Shown piece after piece: positions 4,016-48,150 of a stretch of DNA of 64,000 nt. This DNA is from a virus (Duplodnaviria; Caudoviricetes). The DNA lies in the IMG/VR virus record IMGVR_UViG_3300049988_000286, positions 256,001 to 320,000 of that record; one strand, 5' to 3'. Under the pieces are notes generated by a model that saw nothing but the letters and a program-made list of their open reading frames with translations, was not told where the DNA came from and did not search any database. The first letter of the stretch is position 1; every line of letters begins with the position of its first letter. Both the position numbers and the translations under genes were made by a program.

Positions 4016-4891
4016 TTAGAGGCGCAGCATGGTCTTGATCATCTCCCAGTCGGCGGGATCGAGGGTGACATTGACCACCTGCTCGTCGCCGTCGCCGACC
4101 GTCTCGACCTGATCGGCATCGATCGCGGCCTTGAGGATGTTGGTCATCGCGGCCTTGAGCGACGGGCCGGTGGTGAGGGTCTTGGCGGTCACGCGGGCCT
4201 TGCCGGTGCTCGCCGCCTTCTTCACACCCTCCGCCAGCGCGTCAGCCGTCTTCGAGTCGTCGAAGCCGTTGGCCCGAGCAACCGACAGGGCGGTAGTGGA
4301 CGAAACCGTGCCGTCCTTGATCAGCGCCTTGACCTCGGTGGACAGCCCCGCGATATCGAGAAGCTGGGTGACACGCTGCTTCGACATGCCCGCCCGGTCC
4401 GCGATCTGCTGATCGGTCCAGCCGTGACCCTTGAGGCGCTTGATGACCGACGACTTGCCCAGCGGGGTGAGGGCGAGACCCGAGTTCTCGGTCAGGATGC
4501 CGAGCACCGAGTCGGCGTCGCTCTCGCTGCGGGCGGTCAGCTTGACCGGGATGGTGGCGATCTCCGCGCCGTAGACATCGATCGCCCGGATGGTGGCACG
4601 CAGACGGCACTCACCGTCCTTGAGGAGGAGGCGACCGCCCTTGTTGCGAACGGTGAGGGGACGCTGGATGCCGATCTCGGCGATCGACTTGGCGAGACCG
4701 TCGATGTGCTCGGCGACCTCGGCGGTCTCGAAGTCACGGACGTTGAAGCCGTCCTCGACCTCGATCAGGAGCGGGTTGATCTGGAAGATGTCGCTGCGGC
4801 CCTCGGCAAGCTGCTTGATGCCGCCGGTGCGCTTCGCAGCGAGGGTGGCGAGGTTCTGGCCGAAAGCGGAAGTGGGGGTCAGGCTGGTCAT
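4016..4891 (-). CDS. ParB/Spo0J-like protein
   Basis: FNVRDF...LAKSIAEIGIQRPLTVR...LKDGECRLRA (ParB N-domain) followed by an HTH (WTDQQIADRAGMSKQRVTQLL). Confidence 0.8.
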   Translation of the reverse strand: MTSLTPTSAFGQNLATLAAKRTGGIKQLAEGRSDIFQINPLLIEVEDGFNVRDFETAEVAEHIDGLAKSIAEIGIQRPLTVRNKGGRLLLKDGECRLRATIRAIDVYGAEIATIPVKLTARSESDADSVLGILTENSGLALTPLGKSSVIKRLKGHGWTDQQIADRAGMSKQRVTQLLDIAGLSTEVKALIKDGTVSSTTALSVARANGFDDSKTADALAEGVKKAASTGKARVTAKTLTTGPSLKAAMTNILKAAIDADQVETVGDGDEQVVNVTLDPADWEMIKTMLRL

Positions 4892-15450: not shown

Positions 15451-15734
15451 CCCGCAATCTGCACATCATCCTCCAAGGTGAGCAGACCGCGCTTGCGATG
15501 ACGATCCTCGACATGCGGGCACAAGGACTCCCGTTCCTCGTCTACTCTCGTCGCTGGACGGCCCTTTTCGGTATAGTAGGTCGAGTCATTTCATCTCGTC
15601 TGCTGGCAGCAGCAGAGTACTCGATCGCGCTGGGTAAGTATCAGGGGTTGATGATCAGGCGACACGATCTCGAACTGGTCAAGCTGCTATCGCGGGTTTC
15701 TGTCACGATCGAGGGATCGGAGCGGAGGCGGTGA
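15447..15734 (+). CDS. G(I/L)PF-family small protein
   Basis: NLHIILQG...MRAQGLPFLVY...IRRHDLELVKL, similar to 19129-19392 and 19389-19646. Confidence 0.6.
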   Translation: MTRNLHIILQGEQTALAMTILDMRAQGLPFLVYSRRWTALFGIVGRVISSRLLAAAEYSIALGKYQGLMIRRHDLELVKLLSRVSVTIEGSERRR

Positions 15735-16045
15735 CTGAAGAGGAATTCGCACTGCGGCCCGGCCGCGTTATCGAACGTGATTGGTGGCATCGGATCGGCG
15801 ATCTCATGGATCGTACCGGGATGGTGCGTGAGGTGAAGTTTTCGCAATCGCTGCGCTGCGGACTAGAGACCTACCGCAATGACGATCACATAATCTTCTG
15901 TCTAGATATTAGCAACCTCGATCGCTACAGCGTCACCTTCCCCGGCGGGCGCGTGGTGTTTGAATTCCTACACCGCTATCCCGAGATTCACGCGCGCGTT
16001 GTCGTCGGTGAGGATCAACTCACACTGCTCGCCCTGTATCTGTGA
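15731..16045 (+). CDS. GDEH-LTLA array paralog (divergent)
   Basis: RYSVTFPGGRVVFEF...VVVGEDQLTLLALYL*. Confidence 0.7.
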   Translation: MTEEEFALRPGRVIERDWWHRIGDLMDRTGMVREVKFSQSLRCGLETYRNDDHIIFCLDISNLDRYSVTFPGGRVVFEFLHRYPEIHARVVVGEDQLTLLALYL

Positions 16046-39290: not shown

Positions 39291-39306
39291 TCCCCTAAAT
39301 AGGGGA
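39291..39306 (+). promoter_or_regulatory. Late promoter in a perfect hairpin
   Basis: TCCCCT-AAAT-AGGGGA; TAAATA 39296-39301; ATG 39306. Confidence 0.75.
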
Positions 39307-39923
39307 TGACCTTCACTGTCCAAAAACTCCGCGCTATCTTCCCGACAACGAAAAACGAGGTTCTCGAAACCTTTGTAGCGCCCCTTAATGCCACCTGCGC
39401 ACGCTTCGACATCTCGACGGTCGCGCGCCGCGCCGCCTTTATCGCACAGGTGGGTCACGAGAGCGGCAACCTTACTGCCATGAAGGAGAACCTCAACTAC
39501 GGCCAGAGCGGCCTGTTGAAGGTATTCCCGAAGTATTTCCGTGATGCCGCCACCGCGTCTCGGTACGCCCGTAACCCAAAGGCTATCGCCAATCGCGTCT
39601 ATGCGAACCGGATGGGTAACGGCGACGAGGCGAGCGGAGATGGCTACCGCTATCGTGGTCGTGGTCTGATCCAGATCACCGGCTCGTATAACTACCACGC
39701 GTTCGCGACCGTCATGAAGATCAGCGTCGCTGATGCTTGCACCTACATGGAGACGCTGGAAGGTGCGGCTATGTCGGCGGGTTGGTTCTGGTCACAGGCC
39801 GGGCTCAACGCGATGGCGGATCAGACGCGCTTCACCGACATTACACGGAGGATCAACGGTGGTGTAAATGGTTTAGCGCACCGGAAAGAACTCTGGGCGC
39901 TAGCCCTCAAGGCGTTGGCTTAA
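39306..39923 (+). CDS. Endolysin, glycoside hydrolase family 19
   Basis: FIAQVGHESG, ENLNY, YRYRGRGLIQITGSYNY, SAGWFW, ITRRINGG.NGL..R. Confidence 0.9.
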   Translation: MTFTVQKLRAIFPTTKNEVLETFVAPLNATCARFDISTVARRAAFIAQVGHESGNLTAMKENLNYGQSGLLKVFPKYFRDAATASRYARNPKAIANRVYANRMGNGDEASGDGYRYRGRGLIQITGSYNYHAFATVMKISVADACTYMETLEGAAMSAGWFWSQAGLNAMADQTRFTDITRRINGGVNGLAHRKELWALALKALA

Positions 39924-40347: not shown

Positions 40348-40362
40348 CCACCTAAATAGGTG

Positions 40363-41703
40363 ATGATCACACGATACGATTATTTTTGCGACTACCAGAT
40401 CAAGCGCTTCATCATGCAAGTGGTTCGCGCCTTTTCGGGTTTCCAGTATCAAACCGGTGCACGCGGCGACAAAGCACCAGAACTTCGCTTGGTGCCTTGC
40501 CTCCCTGCCAGCCGCAACCGTCAGGCAGCCGCTATCCGCCGTAACATGTCGGAGAACACCCTTCTATCTGTTCCTCTGATCACGGTGGATATGATCAGCT
40601 TTGAGCCAGATCGCGATCGTGTGCAAAGCCCAGATCACATCGACACCGTTCAGGTGCGCGAGCGCGAGCGGGATGCCATCACGGGCGATTACACAGGTCG
40701 AGCCGGAAACGCCATGACGATCGAGCGTATGATGCCTCGCCCTTACACGATGACGATGCAGGTCGATATTTGGACTGCGAATATGGATCAGAAGCATCAA
40801 TTGCTCGAACAGATCGACATCTACATCAATCCGTCTTTCGACATCCAGAACAGTGATAATCCCCTTGATTGGACCGCACTCACCACTGCCTTCATGGAGT
40901 CGCAAACTTGGTCCTCCCTCTCGATCCCGATTGGCACCGAGAACGAGATCGATGTGGCGACGATTACGCTCAAGATTCCCATGTGGCTCACACCACCCGC
41001 TCGTGTTTCCCGCCAGACCCTGATCCATCAAGTGGTTACCAATATCGCAACCGCAGATCGTGACGAACACGGCGTGATCCGGACTGGCGAAACCTTGATT
41101 GAGCACGTCACGACACCGGATGACTGTCATGTTCGTGTCGAGCGCGGCGTCCTCACGCTCCTTGGTAGCGGGGGTGAAGAGACGCGAGCCGATGGGAGCA
41201 CGTTCTCATGGCACGCCCTTTTGGGGAAGATGGGCGCGATCCTTCATCCATCAGAGACTCAAATCCGAGTGCGCTGCGATAACCGTGATATCATCGGCGT
41301 CATTCAGCCAACCGACGACGACAATCGGGTGATCTGGCAGACAGACATTGATACCCTTCCCCATAATACGCTGTCGCCCATTGATCGCGTCATCGATCCC
41401 CGGCGACACGTCCCCGGTGAGGGTAACATGGCCGCGCCCAGCGATGGTCAGCGTTACCTCCTGCTCGAAGACCTTGCGAGTAATTCGCTGGTCTGGGGGG
41501 CAATTACCGCACGCGAGGGCTCGATCATCGAGCGCCGAAATGGCGCGTGGGTTGTCGTCTTTTCCGGCACGAGCGATCAGTCCGAGTATGTGGTCAATCG
41601 CACCAGCGGGAGACAGCTTCGTTGGGTCGCGGATACCAAGGAGTGGGTCATCGCTATCGATGGTATCTACTCGCCGGGTGAGTGGCGTATCGGGATCGTT
41701 TGA
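40363..41703 (+). CDS. Tail terminator/sheath stabiliser (T4 gp15-like) with C-terminal extension
   Basis: YDYFCDYQIKRFIMQVVRAFSGF, IERMMPRPYTMTMQVDIWT, QLLEQI...NPS, EIDVATITL; CACCT-AAAT-AGGTG late promoter 4 nt before the ATG. Confidence 0.7.
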   Translation: MITRYDYFCDYQIKRFIMQVVRAFSGFQYQTGARGDKAPELRLVPCLPASRNRQAAAIRRNMSENTLLSVPLITVDMISFEPDRDRVQSPDHIDTVQVRERERDAITGDYTGRAGNAMTIERMMPRPYTMTMQVDIWTANMDQKHQLLEQIDIYINPSFDIQNSDNPLDWTALTTAFMESQTWSSLSIPIGTENEIDVATITLKIPMWLTPPARVSRQTLIHQVVTNIATADRDEHGVIRTGETLIEHVTTPDDCHVRVERGVLTLLGSGGEETRADGSTFSWHALLGKMGAILHPSETQIRVRCDNRDIIGVIQPTDDDNRVIWQTDIDTLPHNTLSPIDRVIDPRRHVPGEGNMAAPSDGQRYLLLEDLASNSLVWGAITAREGSIIERRNGAWVVVFSGTSDQSEYVVNRTSGRQLRWVADTKEWVIAIDGIYSPGEWRIGIV

Positions 41704-41746
41704 CAACTCGGTAGTTCGCTGCTAACTGATCTTCAAGGAGATCACG

Positions 41747-42124
41747 ATGCCGCAGAAGAAGACCGAAATGGAATCCGGAGATATTTCTGCGGAGAGCGGT
41801 TATGTCGCGCATACCCCGGAGCAGATGCGCCAACTCGCGATCGATGTCGCCGCAGGGAGCGTGTTCGGTTCGTGGCAGCTTCCCGAACACGATATGCAGC
41901 ACGTGAACCTGATCTTCATGCCACTGATGTTCATGGATGATATCATGGTCAAGGAAATGCAGCGCGACGGTGCTATGCACTTCTACGGCCATATGCGCGA
42001 CTCGTTTGATCGCGGCATCAACGGCTACCCGATCTTCATGTCGGTACGCGTGATCGATGCCGCTGACTGCGCGCGCCTCAATCAAATGCTCAAAGCCTTG
42101 GAGGCTCTCAATGAGGGTAACTGA
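41747..42124 (+). CDS. Hypothetical protein
   Basis: SD AAGGAG; TTGACA 41700-41705. Confidence 0.7.
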   Translation: MPQKKTEMESGDISAESGYVAHTPEQMRQLAIDVAAGSVFGSWQLPEHDMQHVNLIFMPLMFMDDIMVKEMQRDGAMHFYGHMRDSFDRGINGYPIFMSVRVIDAADCARLNQMLKALEALNEGN

Positions 42125-42404
42125 TCGCAAGCTTGGCGGCGAGGCCAATTTCGTCGGTGGAACCGCGCTCACCAACGAGCAGTGGCGTGCGCAGCTTCCG
42201 CCCATCCACTGGCATCGGCTGAAGTTCGCTTCATGGACCGAATCCCACTACGCCCTCGCCTACCGGTGGGCGGCGACGAACAGCGTCGGCTGGGTCTACT
42301 TCAGTGATGAGACCTACTATTTCGGCGACTCCGGTGACGCGGCGCTGTTCATGCTTTGGGTGACGGAGAGCGGCGTCGAGGACGACAGCGGCACGATCGC
42401 ATGA
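42111..42404 (+). CDS. Small protein of the dispersed F-x-x-x-x-D-A-x-L family
   Basis: YFGDSGDAALFMLW. Confidence 0.6.
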   Translation: MRVTDRKLGGEANFVGGTALTNEQWRAQLPPIHWHRLKFASWTESHYALAYRWAATNSVGWVYFSDETYYFGDSGDAALFMLWVTESGVEDDSGTIA

Positions 42405-43063
42405 TGCGCGTCGCCCACATGGCGGTCAGGGACTTTCGAGCTATTCGGAAGTTCGACCGGCGCTTCGATCCCAGCCACCAGATCATCGTCGGCCCAAACG
42501 GTTGCGGGAAGACGACGCTCCTCAACCTCTTGGCGATGGCAGCGGGAAGCGACCGCGCCTCGGGGCTGTTTGCGGGCGAGAGGATCGGTCATCTCTCCGT
42601 GACTCTCGTCAATGACGGTTGCGAATATACGATCGAGATCGGGGATCGCCTTGATCCCGACTATTTCGACGAATGCAAGGCTGCGTTGCCGCAGCGGGTG
42701 AACTTCGCCTTTGACGAGGATTACAGCGATTGGCTGGCGAACGGCAAGATCGATGTCGAGGAGGCGGAGCGCTTGATCGATGCATATCGGGTCCGTGAGA
42801 ACCTCGACACCAACGTCTTCGGGCGTCGCGGCCAGACGGTTCAGGCGTGCTTCGGTGACGGGTCGAAGCAGGGCATACGCCTTTGCCTGTGCGCGGCAAT
42901 GCGGGATGGCCCGCTCCTCTTGGATCAACCAGCACGCCACCTCCACATCGTGGTTAAGCGCTTCATGGGCATCATGTTCGCAAAGACTCCCCAGCAGGTG
43001 ATTTCCGTCACCCATGATCCGGAGTGGATTGCCGAATCCATGAACTCCGCGTTTAGTCTGTGA
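42401..43063 (+). CDS. Standalone ABC/SMC-type ATPase domain (AAA_21/AAA_15-like) with Walker-B E-to-Q
   Basis: VRDFRAI, Walker A GPNGCGKTT, signature-like FGDGSKQ, Walker B LLLDQPARHLH, H-loop VTHDP. Confidence 0.75.
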   Translation: MMRVAHMAVRDFRAIRKFDRRFDPSHQIIVGPNGCGKTTLLNLLAMAAGSDRASGLFAGERIGHLSVTLVNDGCEYTIEIGDRLDPDYFDECKAALPQRVNFAFDEDYSDWLANGKIDVEEAERLIDAYRVRENLDTNVFGRRGQTVQACFGDGSKQGIRLCLCAAMRDGPLLLDQPARHLHIVVKRFMGIMFAKTPQQVISVTHDPEWIAESMNSAFSL

Positions 43064-43102
43064 AAAATAGTTGTTGACAAGTCTTTCCAGTATCCTATTT
43101 GA
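43063..43102 (+). promoter_or_regulatory. Early promoter with UP element
   Basis: AAAAATAGTTGTTGACA (43063-43079), nearly identical to the 10835 and 11604 elements. Confidence 0.65.
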
Positions 43103-43134
43103 CGCCGGGTCGGAACAGCAACAGGAATTTCTAC

Positions 43135-43701
43135 ATGAACGACAATGCAAATCAGGCGATCGATCAGAGCCTCGACATCGCGTCGCGTATCGTCATCGCC
43201 TACGTGGGCAACTCGCACAACCACCTCAATACCGATGCGCTCAACACGCTGATCACTGCCACCTACTCGACTGTGCAGGGTCTCGCCGGTACGGCCGCGC
43301 CCGTCGCCGCCACTGCCGAGGTCGAGGAGGAGATGCGTCCTGCGGTCTCGGTCCGCAAGTCGATCGCCGATCCCGAGTTCATCATCTGTCTCGTCGATGG
43401 CCAGAAGGTCAAGGTGCTCAAGCGCTACATTCGCACGCGCTTCGGCCTGACGCCCGAGCAGTATCGCGAGAAGTTCAACCTCCCCGCCGACTACCCGATG
43501 GTCGCCCGCGCCTATTCGGATCGTCGTCGCGAACTCGCCAAGACGATCGGCCTCGGCACCAAGGGCCGTGTTCGCCAGTCGGCCGTCGAGGCGCTCGCCG
43601 ATATGACCGGCGAGAGCGCGGATACGATCAAGGCAGAGATGGACGGCAAGAAGCCGGGCCGCAAGCCGCGCGCCAAGAAGGCCGAGATGGCGGACGCCTA
43701 A
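43135..43701 (+). CDS. mucR: Ros/MucR-family nucleoid-associated regulator
   Basis: IVIAYVGN, PAVSVRKSI...IICLVDG...LKRYI...GLTPEQYREKFNLPADYPMVARAYS..RRELAK.IGLG. Confidence 0.9.
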   Translation: MNDNANQAIDQSLDIASRIVIAYVGNSHNHLNTDALNTLITATYSTVQGLAGTAAPVAATAEVEEEMRPAVSVRKSIADPEFIICLVDGQKVKVLKRYIRTRFGLTPEQYREKFNLPADYPMVARAYSDRRRELAKTIGLGTKGRVRQSAVEALADMTGESADTIKAEMDGKKPGRKPRAKKAEMADA

Positions 43702-43720
43702 TCGGCCTCGTCTGAATAAT

Positions 43721-43755
43721 AAAAGCCTCGGTGTCTTGCGACGCCGGGGCTTTTT
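43721..43755 (+). terminator. Intrinsic terminator
   Basis: AAGCCTCGGTGTC-ttgc-GACGCCGGGGCTT followed by T's. Confidence 0.8.
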
Positions 43756-43770
43756 CTATATCTTCCCATT

Positions 43771-44358
43771 ATGGAACCGAGCATTGCTGCACTGAATGTC
43801 TCCCCCTCGATCGCGGACGCGTGGCTCGCGGAATTATCGGCTCCGCACCGCTTCTACCACAATGAGCGGCATATTCGCGCCATCGTGGCTAATTACGATC
43901 GTCTCTTCGGTGGTGGCAACCCGATCATCTACGCCACCGCGTGGCTTCATGACATCCGTTACGATGCGCAGCGCGCCGACAATGAGGAACAGTCTGCGGC
44001 AGTCGCCGAGCGCGATCTCGACGGGACTGGGATCGACATCCCCGCCGTCACCGCTCTGATCCTCGACACCAAGTTGCATCGTGGCGGCACACCACTCTCG
44101 AATATCTTCAACGATCTCGACCTCGCGATCCTCTCCGAGCCGTGGGAGGTCTATCTCGAATATGCGAGGGGGATCAGGAACGAGTATCGCTTCGCCCCGC
44201 TTGAGCAATATGCAGAGAGGCGGGCTGCTGTCATGCAGGGATTCAACCGACATCAGCTTTACCGCACCACTGCCTTCATGGCTCGTGAAGCGCGTGGCCA
44301 CGACAATCTGCAACGTGAGATCGACCTCCTTCTCTCCAATCCGGCGATGATCGATTGA
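43771..44358 (+). CDS. HD-superfamily metal-dependent phosphohydrolase (COG4339-like)
   Basis: RFYHNERH, WLHDIRYD..RADNEEQSA, DLDLAIL, IRNEY; TTGCGA-17-TATCTT ends 6 nt before the ATG. Confidence 0.8.
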   Translation: MEPSIAALNVSPSIADAWLAELSAPHRFYHNERHIRAIVANYDRLFGGGNPIIYATAWLHDIRYDAQRADNEEQSAAVAERDLDGTGIDIPAVTALILDTKLHRGGTPLSNIFNDLDLAILSEPWEVYLEYARGIRNEYRFAPLEQYAERRAAVMQGFNRHQLYRTTAFMAREARGHDNLQREIDLLLSNPAMID

Positions 44359-44397
44359 CATTCTCGTAGTTCGTCTGTATCTAGGATGCAGGAGACT

Positions 44398-44952
44398 ATG
44401 ATGGACAAGCAGCTTATCACCGAGAGCATTGCGCGCGTCGTTGCCGCATCGCCGCGTTTCGCCGCCCTCGACGGCATCGAGGTCCGTTTCGTGGACAATC
44501 TCGATCCCTACTCCCCGCTTCGGCTGCGCGAGGATTCGTTCGTGCTCGAAGTCGCTGATGACATGAGCGAGGACTATCGCGCGGAGACGCTCGATTACCT
44601 CGTCGCCATCATGGCGGTTCGTCACGACGAGATCGGCCAGCGCGGCGATCGTGACCAGCGTATCTGGAACATGGCGGGCTGCATCCGCGCCGCCGCCGTG
44701 GTGGGTGCCGAGAACATCGGCGATCCCCTCGCGTCGTCCTTCTACCTCGACGGTCTCGACCCCGCGAAGTCGGTCGCGGAGGTGTACGACGACCTCCTGA
44801 TCGGTATGGTCGGCGGAGAGATCATGGTCAACATCGTTGGCATCGGTGAGTATGGCATTGCCCTTGATGCCATCCCGGTGGAGAGTGACGACATCCACTC
44901 CACCGAGCAACTTGCCGCTGATCGAGCGCGGATTGCGGCGGAGCGCGCATGA
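44398..44952 (+). CDS. Hypothetical protein, weakly resembling vWA/MoxR-associated peptidase-like N-domains
   Basis: RHDEIGQRGDRDQRIWNMAG; lacks an intact HExxH. Confidence 0.5.
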   Translation: MMDKQLITESIARVVAASPRFAALDGIEVRFVDNLDPYSPLRLREDSFVLEVADDMSEDYRAETLDYLVAIMAVRHDEIGQRGDRDQRIWNMAGCIRAAAVVGAENIGDPLASSFYLDGLDPAKSVAEVYDDLLIGMVGGEIMVNIVGIGEYGIALDAIPVESDDIHSTEQLAADRARIAAERA

Positions 44953-45410
44953 GTTTCGAACTCCTCGCTCCTTACCGAATTGTTGGCGTCGATGTAGATG
45001 ACACGTTGCTCGATAATGGGCGACCAGCCGATTACGCGCGCTTCTGGGAGTTTATCGAGACCAATCCCTATGATCAGGTCTTCCACATCATCACCTTCCG
45101 TTCAGGCGGCTGGGAGAAAATGGTGTGGAGCGATCTGCGCTTCTCGGGCTCGACGCTGACGGAGGATCACTTCGCGTCAGTGCAAAGCGTTCCCCACAGC
45201 GTGTGGGCGCTATCGCAGGGTAGTGCGCCGCGTATCATCACATCGATGTCGCAACTCGACGAAGACCCCTACATGCTCTGGAAGGGCAAGGTTTGCGCTG
45301 AACTCGGCTGCGAGGTGCTCATCGACGATATGACCGAGCACGTCATCCGTGGCTGTGATCAGTATGGGGTGAAGCACATCCACCCCGACGAGCTATTTGG
45401 TCAGGGATAG
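44949..45410 (+). CDS. HAD-superfamily phosphatase/nucleotidase
   Basis: VGVDVDDTL (motif I), ITFR (motif II), K...VLIDD (motifs III/IV). Confidence 0.7.
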   Translation: MSFELLAPYRIVGVDVDDTLLDNGRPADYARFWEFIETNPYDQVFHIITFRSGGWEKMVWSDLRFSGSTLTEDHFASVQSVPHSVWALSQGSAPRIITSMSQLDEDPYMLWKGKVCAELGCEVLIDDMTEHVIRGCDQYGVKHIHPDELFGQG

Positions 45411-47088: not shown

Positions 47089-48150
47089 ATGAAGTCTAAC
47101 ATCTATATTTCGCGCAAGGTTCTCAACAAGCAGGACATTATTGACTACGCCACGGATTGTGGTTTCACATCGATGATGCCCGCCGATAGTCTCCACGTAA
47201 CTGTCGTCTATTGTAAGCGCGAAGTTGACTGGAACATCGTTGATCGTGACCAGCCCGAAATGCTCATCATCGAGAGTGCCGAGGACGAGAGCGAGCGGTC
47301 GATCCACAACTTTGACGGTGGGGCTTGCGTCCTAGAGATTACCTGCCCGGAATTACAGGAACGCAACGATGCGCTCCGGGAGCAGGGCATCCATTCCAAG
47401 TTCCCCGATTATCGTGCGCACATCACCCTCACGTACAAGAAACCGAAGAAGATGTCGGTCAAGAAGATCAAGCCCTACATGGGTGCGATCGTGCTCGGAC
47501 CGGAGATCATCGCGCCCGCGAGTTCTGGATGGCAAGAGGAATACAAGGAGGTCAAGCTGATGAAAAGAGAAGTGATCAAAGAGGCTCGTCTCGACGATCT
47601 TGACATCGATGCCACCTATGAGGTTTTTCGTTCCAGCTATGAATCCACGACTGGGCAGTCATGGACTCGCGAGAAGTTTGAAGATCGCGCCCGCAACTGG
47701 ACTTTCTACGGGGACGCGACAGGTTTCGTGGCCTTCCGCGAACAGGCCAGTGGGATGCGTAAACTCGTCGGTGTCGCCGGGGATACCAGCGGCGTCGTCA
47801 TCGGCCTGAAACAACTCGTTGATGAGGGTAAGCCGACATGGGGTGCAGTGAGCGAGAAGATCGCCCGCGCGGCCAAGCGCTTCGGTTTCATCGCCCCCCA
47901 CACCTACCTCGGTGGGGCGCTGGTGATGCGGCTGATCATGAAAGCCATTCCGGCGAGTGTCTTTGGTGGGGTGAAGCCGGAAGTCAATGGCAAGGGTGGC
48001 GTCACCCTCTCGTATGAGGATTTGGGCGAGCAGACGAAGTTTTTCATCGCGAACAAGGCCTACTTCGGTGAACTACTCAACAATCCCTCGTTCTCCGAGC
48101 ATGTCCAGAACCCGGTCGTGAAGAAATTTATCGAGGCGGTTTTGAAATAA
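47089..48150 (+). CDS. 2H phosphoesterase (T4 57B/Acb1-like) fused to an unknown C-terminal domain
   Basis: SLHVTVVY and YRAHITLTY (two HxT motifs), VLEI...ELQER, IVLGPE; a second ~185-aa domain follows. Confidence 0.7.
   Translation: MKSNIYISRKVLNKQDIIDYATDCGFTSMMPADSLHVTVVYCKREVDWNIVDRDQPEMLIIESAEDESERSIHNFDGGACVLEITCPELQERNDALREQGIHSKFPDYRAHITLTYKKPKKMSVKKIKPYMGAIVLGPEIIAPASSGWQEEYKEVKLMKREVIKEARLDDLDIDATYEVFRSSYESTTGQSWTREKFEDRARNWTFYGDATGFVAFREQASGMRKLVGVAGDTSGVVIGLKQLVDEGKPTWGAVSEKIARAAKRFGFIAPHTYLGGALVMRLIMKAIPASVFGGVKPEVNGKGGVTLSYEDLGEQTKFFIANKAYFGELLNNPSFSEHVQNPVVKKFIEAVLK

Follow-up and report, generated by a model that had tools for sequence, protein, structure and literature searches.

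Several widespread anti-phage systems use ATP-binding cassette (ABC) ATPase heads of the AAA_15/AAA_21 class as their sensors, and in ABC proteins the exchange of the catalytic glutamate for alanine or glutamine generally abolishes ATPase activity. Here we describe P0001, a minimal ABC-type (AAA_15/AAA_21-like) ATPase of 220 amino acids encoded by a leaf-associated phage, in which a glutamine (Q176) stands in place of that glutamate. Its gene lies at 42401..43063 on the plus strand of a 64,000-nucleotide stretch of DNA (the window, positions 256,001 to 320,000 of IMG/VR virus record IMGVR_UViG_3300049988_000286), to which coordinates refer unless stated otherwise. In AriA, the sensor of the PARIS system, the position corresponding to Q176 is E393, and the E393A mutant is ATPase-defective (PMC11464382). 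OLD-class ATPases hydrolyse ATP despite non-canonical Walker B, Q-loop and D-loop residues, and OLD proteins have a D-loop histidine (PMC7049728). The reading that we favour, with a probability of roughly one half, is that P0001 acts as a switch that binds ATP, dimerises in its presence and hydrolyses it little or not at all, within a phage module formed by the ATPase and two small proteins, A and B.

We read P0001 as a binding and dimerising switch because it has kept every motif needed to bind ATP and to form the ATP-sandwich dimer, namely the Walker A lysine, the Walker B aspartate, the signature glycine, the D-loop and the H-loop histidine. The single-domain head would bind ATP and dimerise as a nucleotide-dependent switch or clamp, and ATP would be turned over slowly or not at all, as the catalytic carboxylate is gone. 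It would work with A and B, both of which are acidic and translationally coupled, and possibly with the adjacent MucR-like protein. What the analysis establishes is the fold, the family, the motif states, the synteny, the purifying selection and the reality of Q176; that ATP is bound but poorly hydrolysed, that the protein dimerises and that A and B are its partners, we infer.

Active site, fold and family of the ATPase

The initial annotation, a model's reading of the letters and their open reading frames, had described an intact Walker A and H-loop, a Walker B reading LLLDQP (GAT CAA) and a degenerate signature (FGDGSKQ), all of which are borne out by translation. On the plus strand, Walker A (GPNGCGKT) occupies residues 31-38 (42491..42514) and the signature residues 151-157 (42851..42871), with the signature serine replaced by glycine. 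Walker B and the D-loop (PLLLD-Q-P-A-RHLH) span 42911..42946, where GAT CAA falls at 42923-42928 and the CAA codon of Q176 at 42926-42928; the H-loop reads VTHDPE, with H205 at 43013..43015. H182 is at the D-loop position, and A178 stands where the family usually has a glutamate three residues after the Walker B acid (position +3, Q176 being at +1). In HMMER alignments Q176 falls on the catalytic glutamate of ABC-F proteins (LLLDQPARHLH on LLLD-E/Q-PTNHLD), and the best PDB sequence matches, which cover the C-terminal half, are PoxtA (7p7q), YheS (9nlh, 9vvi) and ExpZ/VmlR (8buu, 6ha8). The deposited PoxtA, YheS and ExpZ chains read LLLDQPTNHLD, and EttA in the same list reads LLLDEP; we take the PoxtA, YheS and ExpZ/VmlR entries to be engineered E-to-Q 'EQ2' trapping mutants and EttA to be wild type.

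The stop-free translation passes the Pfam cut-offs for AAA_21 (48.6 bits, cut-off 27), AAA_15 (32.9, cut-off 32.1) and ABC_tran (32.1, cut-off 25), and the AlphaFold2 model built from a 42-sequence alignment has a predicted local distance difference test score (pLDDT) of 93.4. By VIA-align the model matches Rad50 (Z 16.3), SMC (16.2), AriA (15.6), PtuA (13.9), RecF (13.9) and OLD (13.2), with about 200 of the 220 residues covered in each case; transporter nucleotide-binding domains (NBDs) reach Z 12-13 over about 175 aligned residues. The best Foldseek match is AriA (8v47_H, E 2e-10), and all ten of the nearest ESM-Atlas clusters are bacterial AAA_15/AAA_21 ATPases, at template-modelling (TM) scores of 0.65-0.78. 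The assignment to the ATPase class of AriA, PtuA and OLD, first made from motifs in the initial annotation, is thus upheld by fold.

On the evidence of the model, P0001 is a two-lobed ABC head of the AAA_15/AAA_21 class, and the bare head only. About 45 residues separate lobe I from the signature motif, and in the secondary-structure map a short helical hairpin (residues 119-138) stands where a coiled coil or an insert domain is found in relatives; the model and the family scans reveal no coiled coil, dimerisation insert, nuclease or effector domain. PADLOC and NCBIfam matches (AriA, PtuA, GajA, MAD3) cover about the first 50 residues only and lie far under their cut-offs, the PtuA model, for instance, giving 28 bits against a cut-off of 500 over residues ~2-50. 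Sequence likeness to RecF is confined to the P-loop (TIGR00611, residues 5-45), and the ribo_prot_ABC_F model scores 37 bits against a cut-off of 380. By these scores P0001 falls outside all named defence families. Its isoelectric point (pI) is 5.9, the family median being 6.4, and the source genome encodes neither a second family member nor an obvious partner NBD.

In the source run the Q176 codon is covered at a depth of about 50 without a variant, and CAA is kept in contigs of two other studies, X2 (42854-43298) and X6 (42718-42963), which differ from the window at a handful of mostly silent sites. Strain variants within the open reading frame comprise 19 synonymous and 4 non-synonymous changes, three of the latter falling in the last three residues, and the ATPase gene is under purifying selection. 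An error of sequencing or assembly, or a pseudogene in decay, could be argued from the fact that GAA to CAA is a one-base change and that the two closest relatives read GAA. Because of the read depth, the contigs from other studies and the 19:4 ratio, base error and gene decay are excluded for practical purposes, and the intact reading frame and high-confidence fold also speak against a pseudogene; the single-base error that had been allowed for in the initial annotation can be set aside.

The most similar relative of P0001 is a protein of the related locus L013 (38% identity), which reads DEPS, as does its counterpart in locus L011; in this pair, the two closest relatives, the +1 codon is GAA, and in P0001 it is CAA. 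As these codons fit a single step, Q176 may be a literal one-step change from glutamate to glutamine. A clade uniting P0001 with the DEPS pair is not on the best tree, and the approximately unbiased (AU) test does not reject it (p 0.25). Whatever its origin, the P0001 lineage, as read from the alignment, is without the only active-site carboxylate that its relatives keep.

An exhaustive HMMER search over 1.84 billion representatives returned 46 proteins at E<1e-10. We picked 41 short relatives (216-257 amino acids) from the 150 best matches; together with P0001 and one more member read from L013, they form a compared set of 43 sequences. Longer matches, from E about 1e-12, look like two-NBD ABC-F proteins, and no fused form of the family was found among the HMMER matches. 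The family, of about 43 clusters, appears to be undescribed and was seen only on phage-like contigs (megaphage-like and Atu_ph07-related T4-like). K37 is present in 43 of 43 sequences, H205 and the Walker B acid (D or E) in 41 each, and Q199 is invariant in the 42-sequence alignment A4. In the signature, G154 is nearly invariant and GDG occurs in 22 of 43, while subgroup 2 of the family retains SETGAQR; D-loop position 182 is aspartate in 23 members and histidine in 20.

The +1 residue is hypervariable: 14 amino acids occur there, with glutamate and aspartate found twice each and glutamine in P0001 only. At +3, E or D is present in 34 of 43 members (DxPE[RH]L[DH], the second glutamate of the OLD-class 'DEPE'). 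Four members carry an acid at +1 only (DEPS twice, DDPG and DDPV), none carries acids at both positions, and five have neither: P0001 (DQPA), P0017 (DNPS), P0026 (DNPA), P0034 (ENPG) and P0023 (DHMG). On a tree built without the +1 and +3 columns, at least two clades acquire the +1 acid, and the forms lacking both acids, five in all, are scattered single tips. The mutual exclusivity of the two acids is suggestive only, its nominal Fisher p of 0.001 resting on 2-3 phylogenetically independent contrasts. This scatter on the tree suggests that the family function tolerates carboxylate loss. Five independent losses of the carboxylate, in a gene that remains under purifying selection, argue that this function depends more on binding the nucleotide and dimerising than on hydrolysing it. 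The question of whether Q176 is conserved, raised in the initial annotation, has a divided answer, since the glutamine holds among reads and strain contigs and fails among homologues; nor do the homologues all carry glutamate, which is found in 2 of the 42 relatives. Deficient hydrolysis may not be a trait of the family, for most relatives keep a carboxylate two residues on (DxPE).

The gene block and its phage

The ATPase had been described as standalone, which does not hold: its ATG overlaps the stop codon of B (ATGA), A and B share 14 nt, and the ATPase gene belongs to a conserved block, in the order gp15, A, B, ATPase, MucR, that recurs in 8 related loci of other samples besides the window. 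The full block is present in L001, L005, the locus of P0009, L011 and L013; L006 ends before MucR, and L002 and L004 start after gp15. Every readable locus of subgroup 1 (L001, L002, L004, L005/L006, the P0009 locus, L011 and L013) has the identical order, and gene overlaps, including the ATGA start, recur in other loci.

In the window, the upstream anchor of the block is a T4 gp15-like tail sheath stabiliser (40360..41703, plus strand; Pfam PF16724 1e-14, phrog_11196 9e-89). It is followed on the same strand by protein A (125 amino acids, 41747..42124), the tryptophan-rich protein B (97 amino acids, 42111..42404), the ATPase and a MucR/Ros-family protein (43135..43701; Pfam PF05443 1.2e-37), after which a strong intrinsic terminator-like hairpin (43721..43754, plus strand) closes the block; no terminator was found inside it. 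In each of the 8 subgroup-1 loci that are long enough to show it, MucR is the gene directly 3' of the ATPase. B homologues occupy the matching position in L001, L002, L005, L011 and L013, and a spaced one in L017. Across loci, ATPase identity is 26-41%, against 54-58% for gp15 and 43-54% for MucR, the ATPase evolving faster than the other two.

A TTGACA-type MucR promoter (43074-43101, plus strand) is conserved across loci, and its TTGACA/T-N16-17-TATTTT-like form is kept in six diverged phages (the window, L001, L002, L004, L005 and L011), which suggests early expression of MucR by the host RNA polymerase. Weaker sigma-70-like sites precede A in four loci (the window, L001, L005 and L011); the candidate in the window, identified by sequence inspection, is TTGACA-N17-TAACTG at 41700..41728 (plus strand), with a weak -10 element.

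Proteins A and B belong to no known family: they have no Pfam, PHROG, PADLOC or NCBIfam match and no nuclease or toxin features. Across subgroup-1 loci A measures 114-133 and B 73-112 amino acids, and all 39 homologues of A lie on phage-like contigs. The AlphaFold2 model of A has a pLDDT of 92, its best PDB match by VIA-align reaches Z 3.3 and Foldseek gave no match below E 0.38; A may have a new fold. Fold and Atlas searches with A and B returned nothing informative, and a complex prediction for the ATPase with protein B scored 0.23 against a mark of 0.32, which gives no verdict and is not evidence either way.

In L017, a distant subgroup-2 megaphage of 561 kb, A, B and the ATPase are near gp15, separated by extra genes and without MucR. 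There, a 550-nt gene-free stretch after the ATPase (L017 7736-8287) begins with a TTGACA-type promoter and holds a tRNA-like sequence recognised by eye; putative RNA genes would occupy in this phage the place held by MucR in subgroup 1. In L005, a small PARP-like (ADP-ribosyltransferase) gene (4016-4435 of that locus, minus strand; Pfam PF00644 28 bits, cut-off 26.7) lies right after MucR.

The source record is 499,572 bp long, is rated complete by CheckV and includes the window as a part. Judged by gp15, Sinorhizobium phage Phosso (469 kb) and Agrobacterium phage Atu_ph07 (490 kb) are its nearest cultured relatives. They share with it the endolysin-gp15 segment, a GH19-type endolysin being encoded at 39306-39923 of the window as a phage gene of the neighbourhood, and what follows gp15 in them has no relation to A, B, the ATPase or MucR. 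The block is thus accessory to the wider phage group and stably inherited in a subclade. A megablast search of the INPHARED phage collection with 41000-45000 gave no match, tblastn with the ATPase gave weak ABC-F matches only, and a related-locus search of viral contigs (alignment A5) gave no confirmed relative.

Downstream of MucR lies a 195-amino-acid gene (43771-44358) that matches a phage 'phosphohydrolase' PHROG (phrog_19425, 1.1e-15), has no Pfam match and is HD-like. An Acb1 anti-CBASS gene (353 amino acids, 47089-48150) sits 4 kb downstream of the ATPase, with its Acb1 domain at residues 5-150 (Pfam 1.9e-28) and no family match for the C-terminal ~200 residues; Acb1 genes are found downstream in L001 and L017 too. 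That no nuclease or TOPRIM partner is adjacent, as the initial annotation had stated, was confirmed by Pfam, PHROG and PADLOC scans of the neighbouring genes, which gave no DUF4435 match either. The same annotation had drawn support from a trio of tRNA-Lys genes, which loses its meaning here: ARAGORN finds 41 tRNA genes in the whole genome, covering nearly all amino acids, and the trio is part of that set. In this set, two genes labelled Pyl have a CUA anticodon with which they could read TAG, another is called with a four-base anticodon (tcca), and ARAGORN also reports a tmRNA-like gene. These unusual calls lie outside the window, at 102238-102314, 106351-106425, 402970-403045 and 15556-15913 in whole-genome coordinates, and they hint at possible stop-codon suppression or recoding by the megaphage.

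Weighing the possible functions

Several observations weigh against a binding and dimerising switch within an A-B-ATPase module. The partnership with A and B is drawn from synteny, and A-B pairs without the ATPase occur in L015 and L016, as does A alone in L014. In the whole genomes of Phosso and Atu_ph07 the family profile finds no member, the only match being to the P-loop of a 781-amino-acid open reading frame; because both phages are without the whole cassette, the block is accessory and not core, and with Acb1 4 kb away this status would suit an internal role and a host-interaction role equally well. Moreover, the +3 glutamate of most relatives, or the D-loop in trans together with the H-loop, might support hydrolysis. 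P0001 itself could be a still-active ATPase with another catalysis, using His182 of the D-loop in trans and His205 of the H-loop, or a residue of A or B, in a DNA role like that of RecF or Rad50. RecF, Rad50 and SMC heads are among its best fold matches, RecF likewise has two small partners, and H205, H182 and Q199 are conserved; the OLD class, as noted above, manages hydrolysis with non-canonical motifs. We nevertheless consider such an activity unlikely, as P0001 is near-neutral to acidic and A and B are acidic, unlike typical DNA-binding heads, and as AriA loses its ATPase activity with E393A (PMC11464382).

A further possibility is the anti-defence decoy put forward in the initial annotation. 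In the form considered here, an insert-less, hydrolysis-dead head would join host AAA_15/AAA_21 defence ATPase heads in ATP-trapped heterodimers, so that the heads of PARIS AriA, Septu/retron PtuA, Gabija GajA, OLD or Lamassu-type systems would be locked or capped. P0001 is of the same structural class as these sensors, is without an active-site carboxylate while keeping the dimer-interface motifs, and has the LLLDQP..HL motif of the deposited PoxtA, YheS and ExpZ chains. The accessory nature of the cassette, its sigma-70-like promoter candidates, the faster change of the ATPase relative to gp15 and MucR and, circumstantially, its position between gp15 and a bona fide Acb1 anti-CBASS gene would all be in keeping with such a role. 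Yet the likeness to defence ATPases does not go beyond the generic head, there is no trace of host capture, and the next-best sequence relatives are ABC-F proteins. The change from glutamate to glutamine is lineage-specific, relatives having DxPE or DEPS, the gene has a stable syntenic position and is inherited vertically, and the constant company of A and B suggests a dedicated phage complex. Together with the void tRNA-Lys argument, this makes a decoy rather improbable to us. In a more specific form, phage-specific 'head caps' made early from their own promoter would enter an ATP sandwich with transiently open host immune ATPase heads (PARIS, Septu/retron, Gabija or OLD type), unresolvable because there is no catalytic carboxylate, with A and B aiding the targeting. 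If true, this would amount to a new and potentially broad-spectrum principle of anti-defence; this we also regard as improbable. Least credible among the functional proposals is a phage-borne exclusion or defence module, in which the ATPase would be the sensor and A, B or both the effectors turned on competing phages, in the manner of AAA_21 and AbiEii-like ATPases in abortive infection. The Pfam family AAA_21 ('putative AbiEii toxin') and many PADLOC ATPase models do match P0001, and phages and satellites carry such systems (PMC11464382). The PADLOC matches, however, span the P-loop region only, A and B are without family matches and without nuclease or toxin features, and a sensor devoid of hydrolysis and of all insert domains has no precedent among these systems. 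We retain the switch with little or no turnover as the best account of P0001.

Comparison with known ATPase systems

A comparative paper on jumbo phages mentions only SbcC-type and GNAT-linked ABC ATPases, not the P0001 family (PMC7824862), and in the literature searched we found no description of a phage-encoded, insert-less head that is naturally without its catalytic glutamate. P0001 represents a new phage-specific form of a known ATPase class. Within its family the active site occurs naturally in a series of states (DxPE, DEPS, DDPx and none), from which one may ask whether a +3 glutamate can replace the canonical base, and the A-B-ATPase block adds a three-protein module to a poorly known clade of 400-560-kb phages. 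Should the decoy prove true, it would be a new counter-defence mechanism; should it not, P0001 would still be a clear case of selection acting on binding over turnover in an ABC protein.

Among housekeeping ATPases, RecF is a compact SMC-like head that resembles P0001 by fold (VIA-align, as given above), dimerises in an ATP-dependent manner, has a very weak ATPase activity and works with two small partner proteins. It differs in being ~360 amino acids long, with an inserted domain, and in binding DNA and acting with RecO and RecR, to which A and B are unrelated. In SMC, Rad50 and RecF a coiled coil or inserted domain leaves the head, whereas P0001 has only the short helix pair at residues 119-138. 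ABC-F proteins bind the ribosome and consist of two tandem NBDs joined by a linker that interacts with the P-site tRNA, whereas P0001 is a natural single NBD with a fold nearer to SMC and OLD heads. Natural loss of the glutamate is familiar from the degenerate sites of heterodimeric ABC proteins (CFTR NBD1, TAP1), where ATP stays bound and is hardly hydrolysed; those sites pair with a competent second NBD in one transporter, whereas none was found in the P0001 genome.

The comparison with the defence ATPases is the closest. The head fold is common to P0001, AriA, PtuA, GajA and OLD, and these defence ATPases share with P0001 the N-terminal beta-hairpin with GxNGxGK[ST], the DxPE.HL[HD] layout of Walker B and the D-loop, and a Q..I..THSPE-type H-loop region. 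P0001 is about half their size, however, and has no insertion or coiled coil, no TOPRIM or HNH domain and no such partner. AriA, of ~55 kDa, has a domain inserted between its two lobes that builds a hexameric scaffold, and it aligns with the 220 residues of P0001 over the head only. In PARIS the TOPRIM nuclease AriB adjoins AriA, and in Septu, Gabija and OLD systems the ATPase (PtuA, GajA or OLD) has an HNH partner (PtuB) or a fused or adjacent TOPRIM domain, neither of which is near P0001; its neighbours are A, B, MucR and the HD-like phosphohydrolase. Unlike the defence ATPases, P0001 is encoded in a lytic-type megaphage, beside structural genes.

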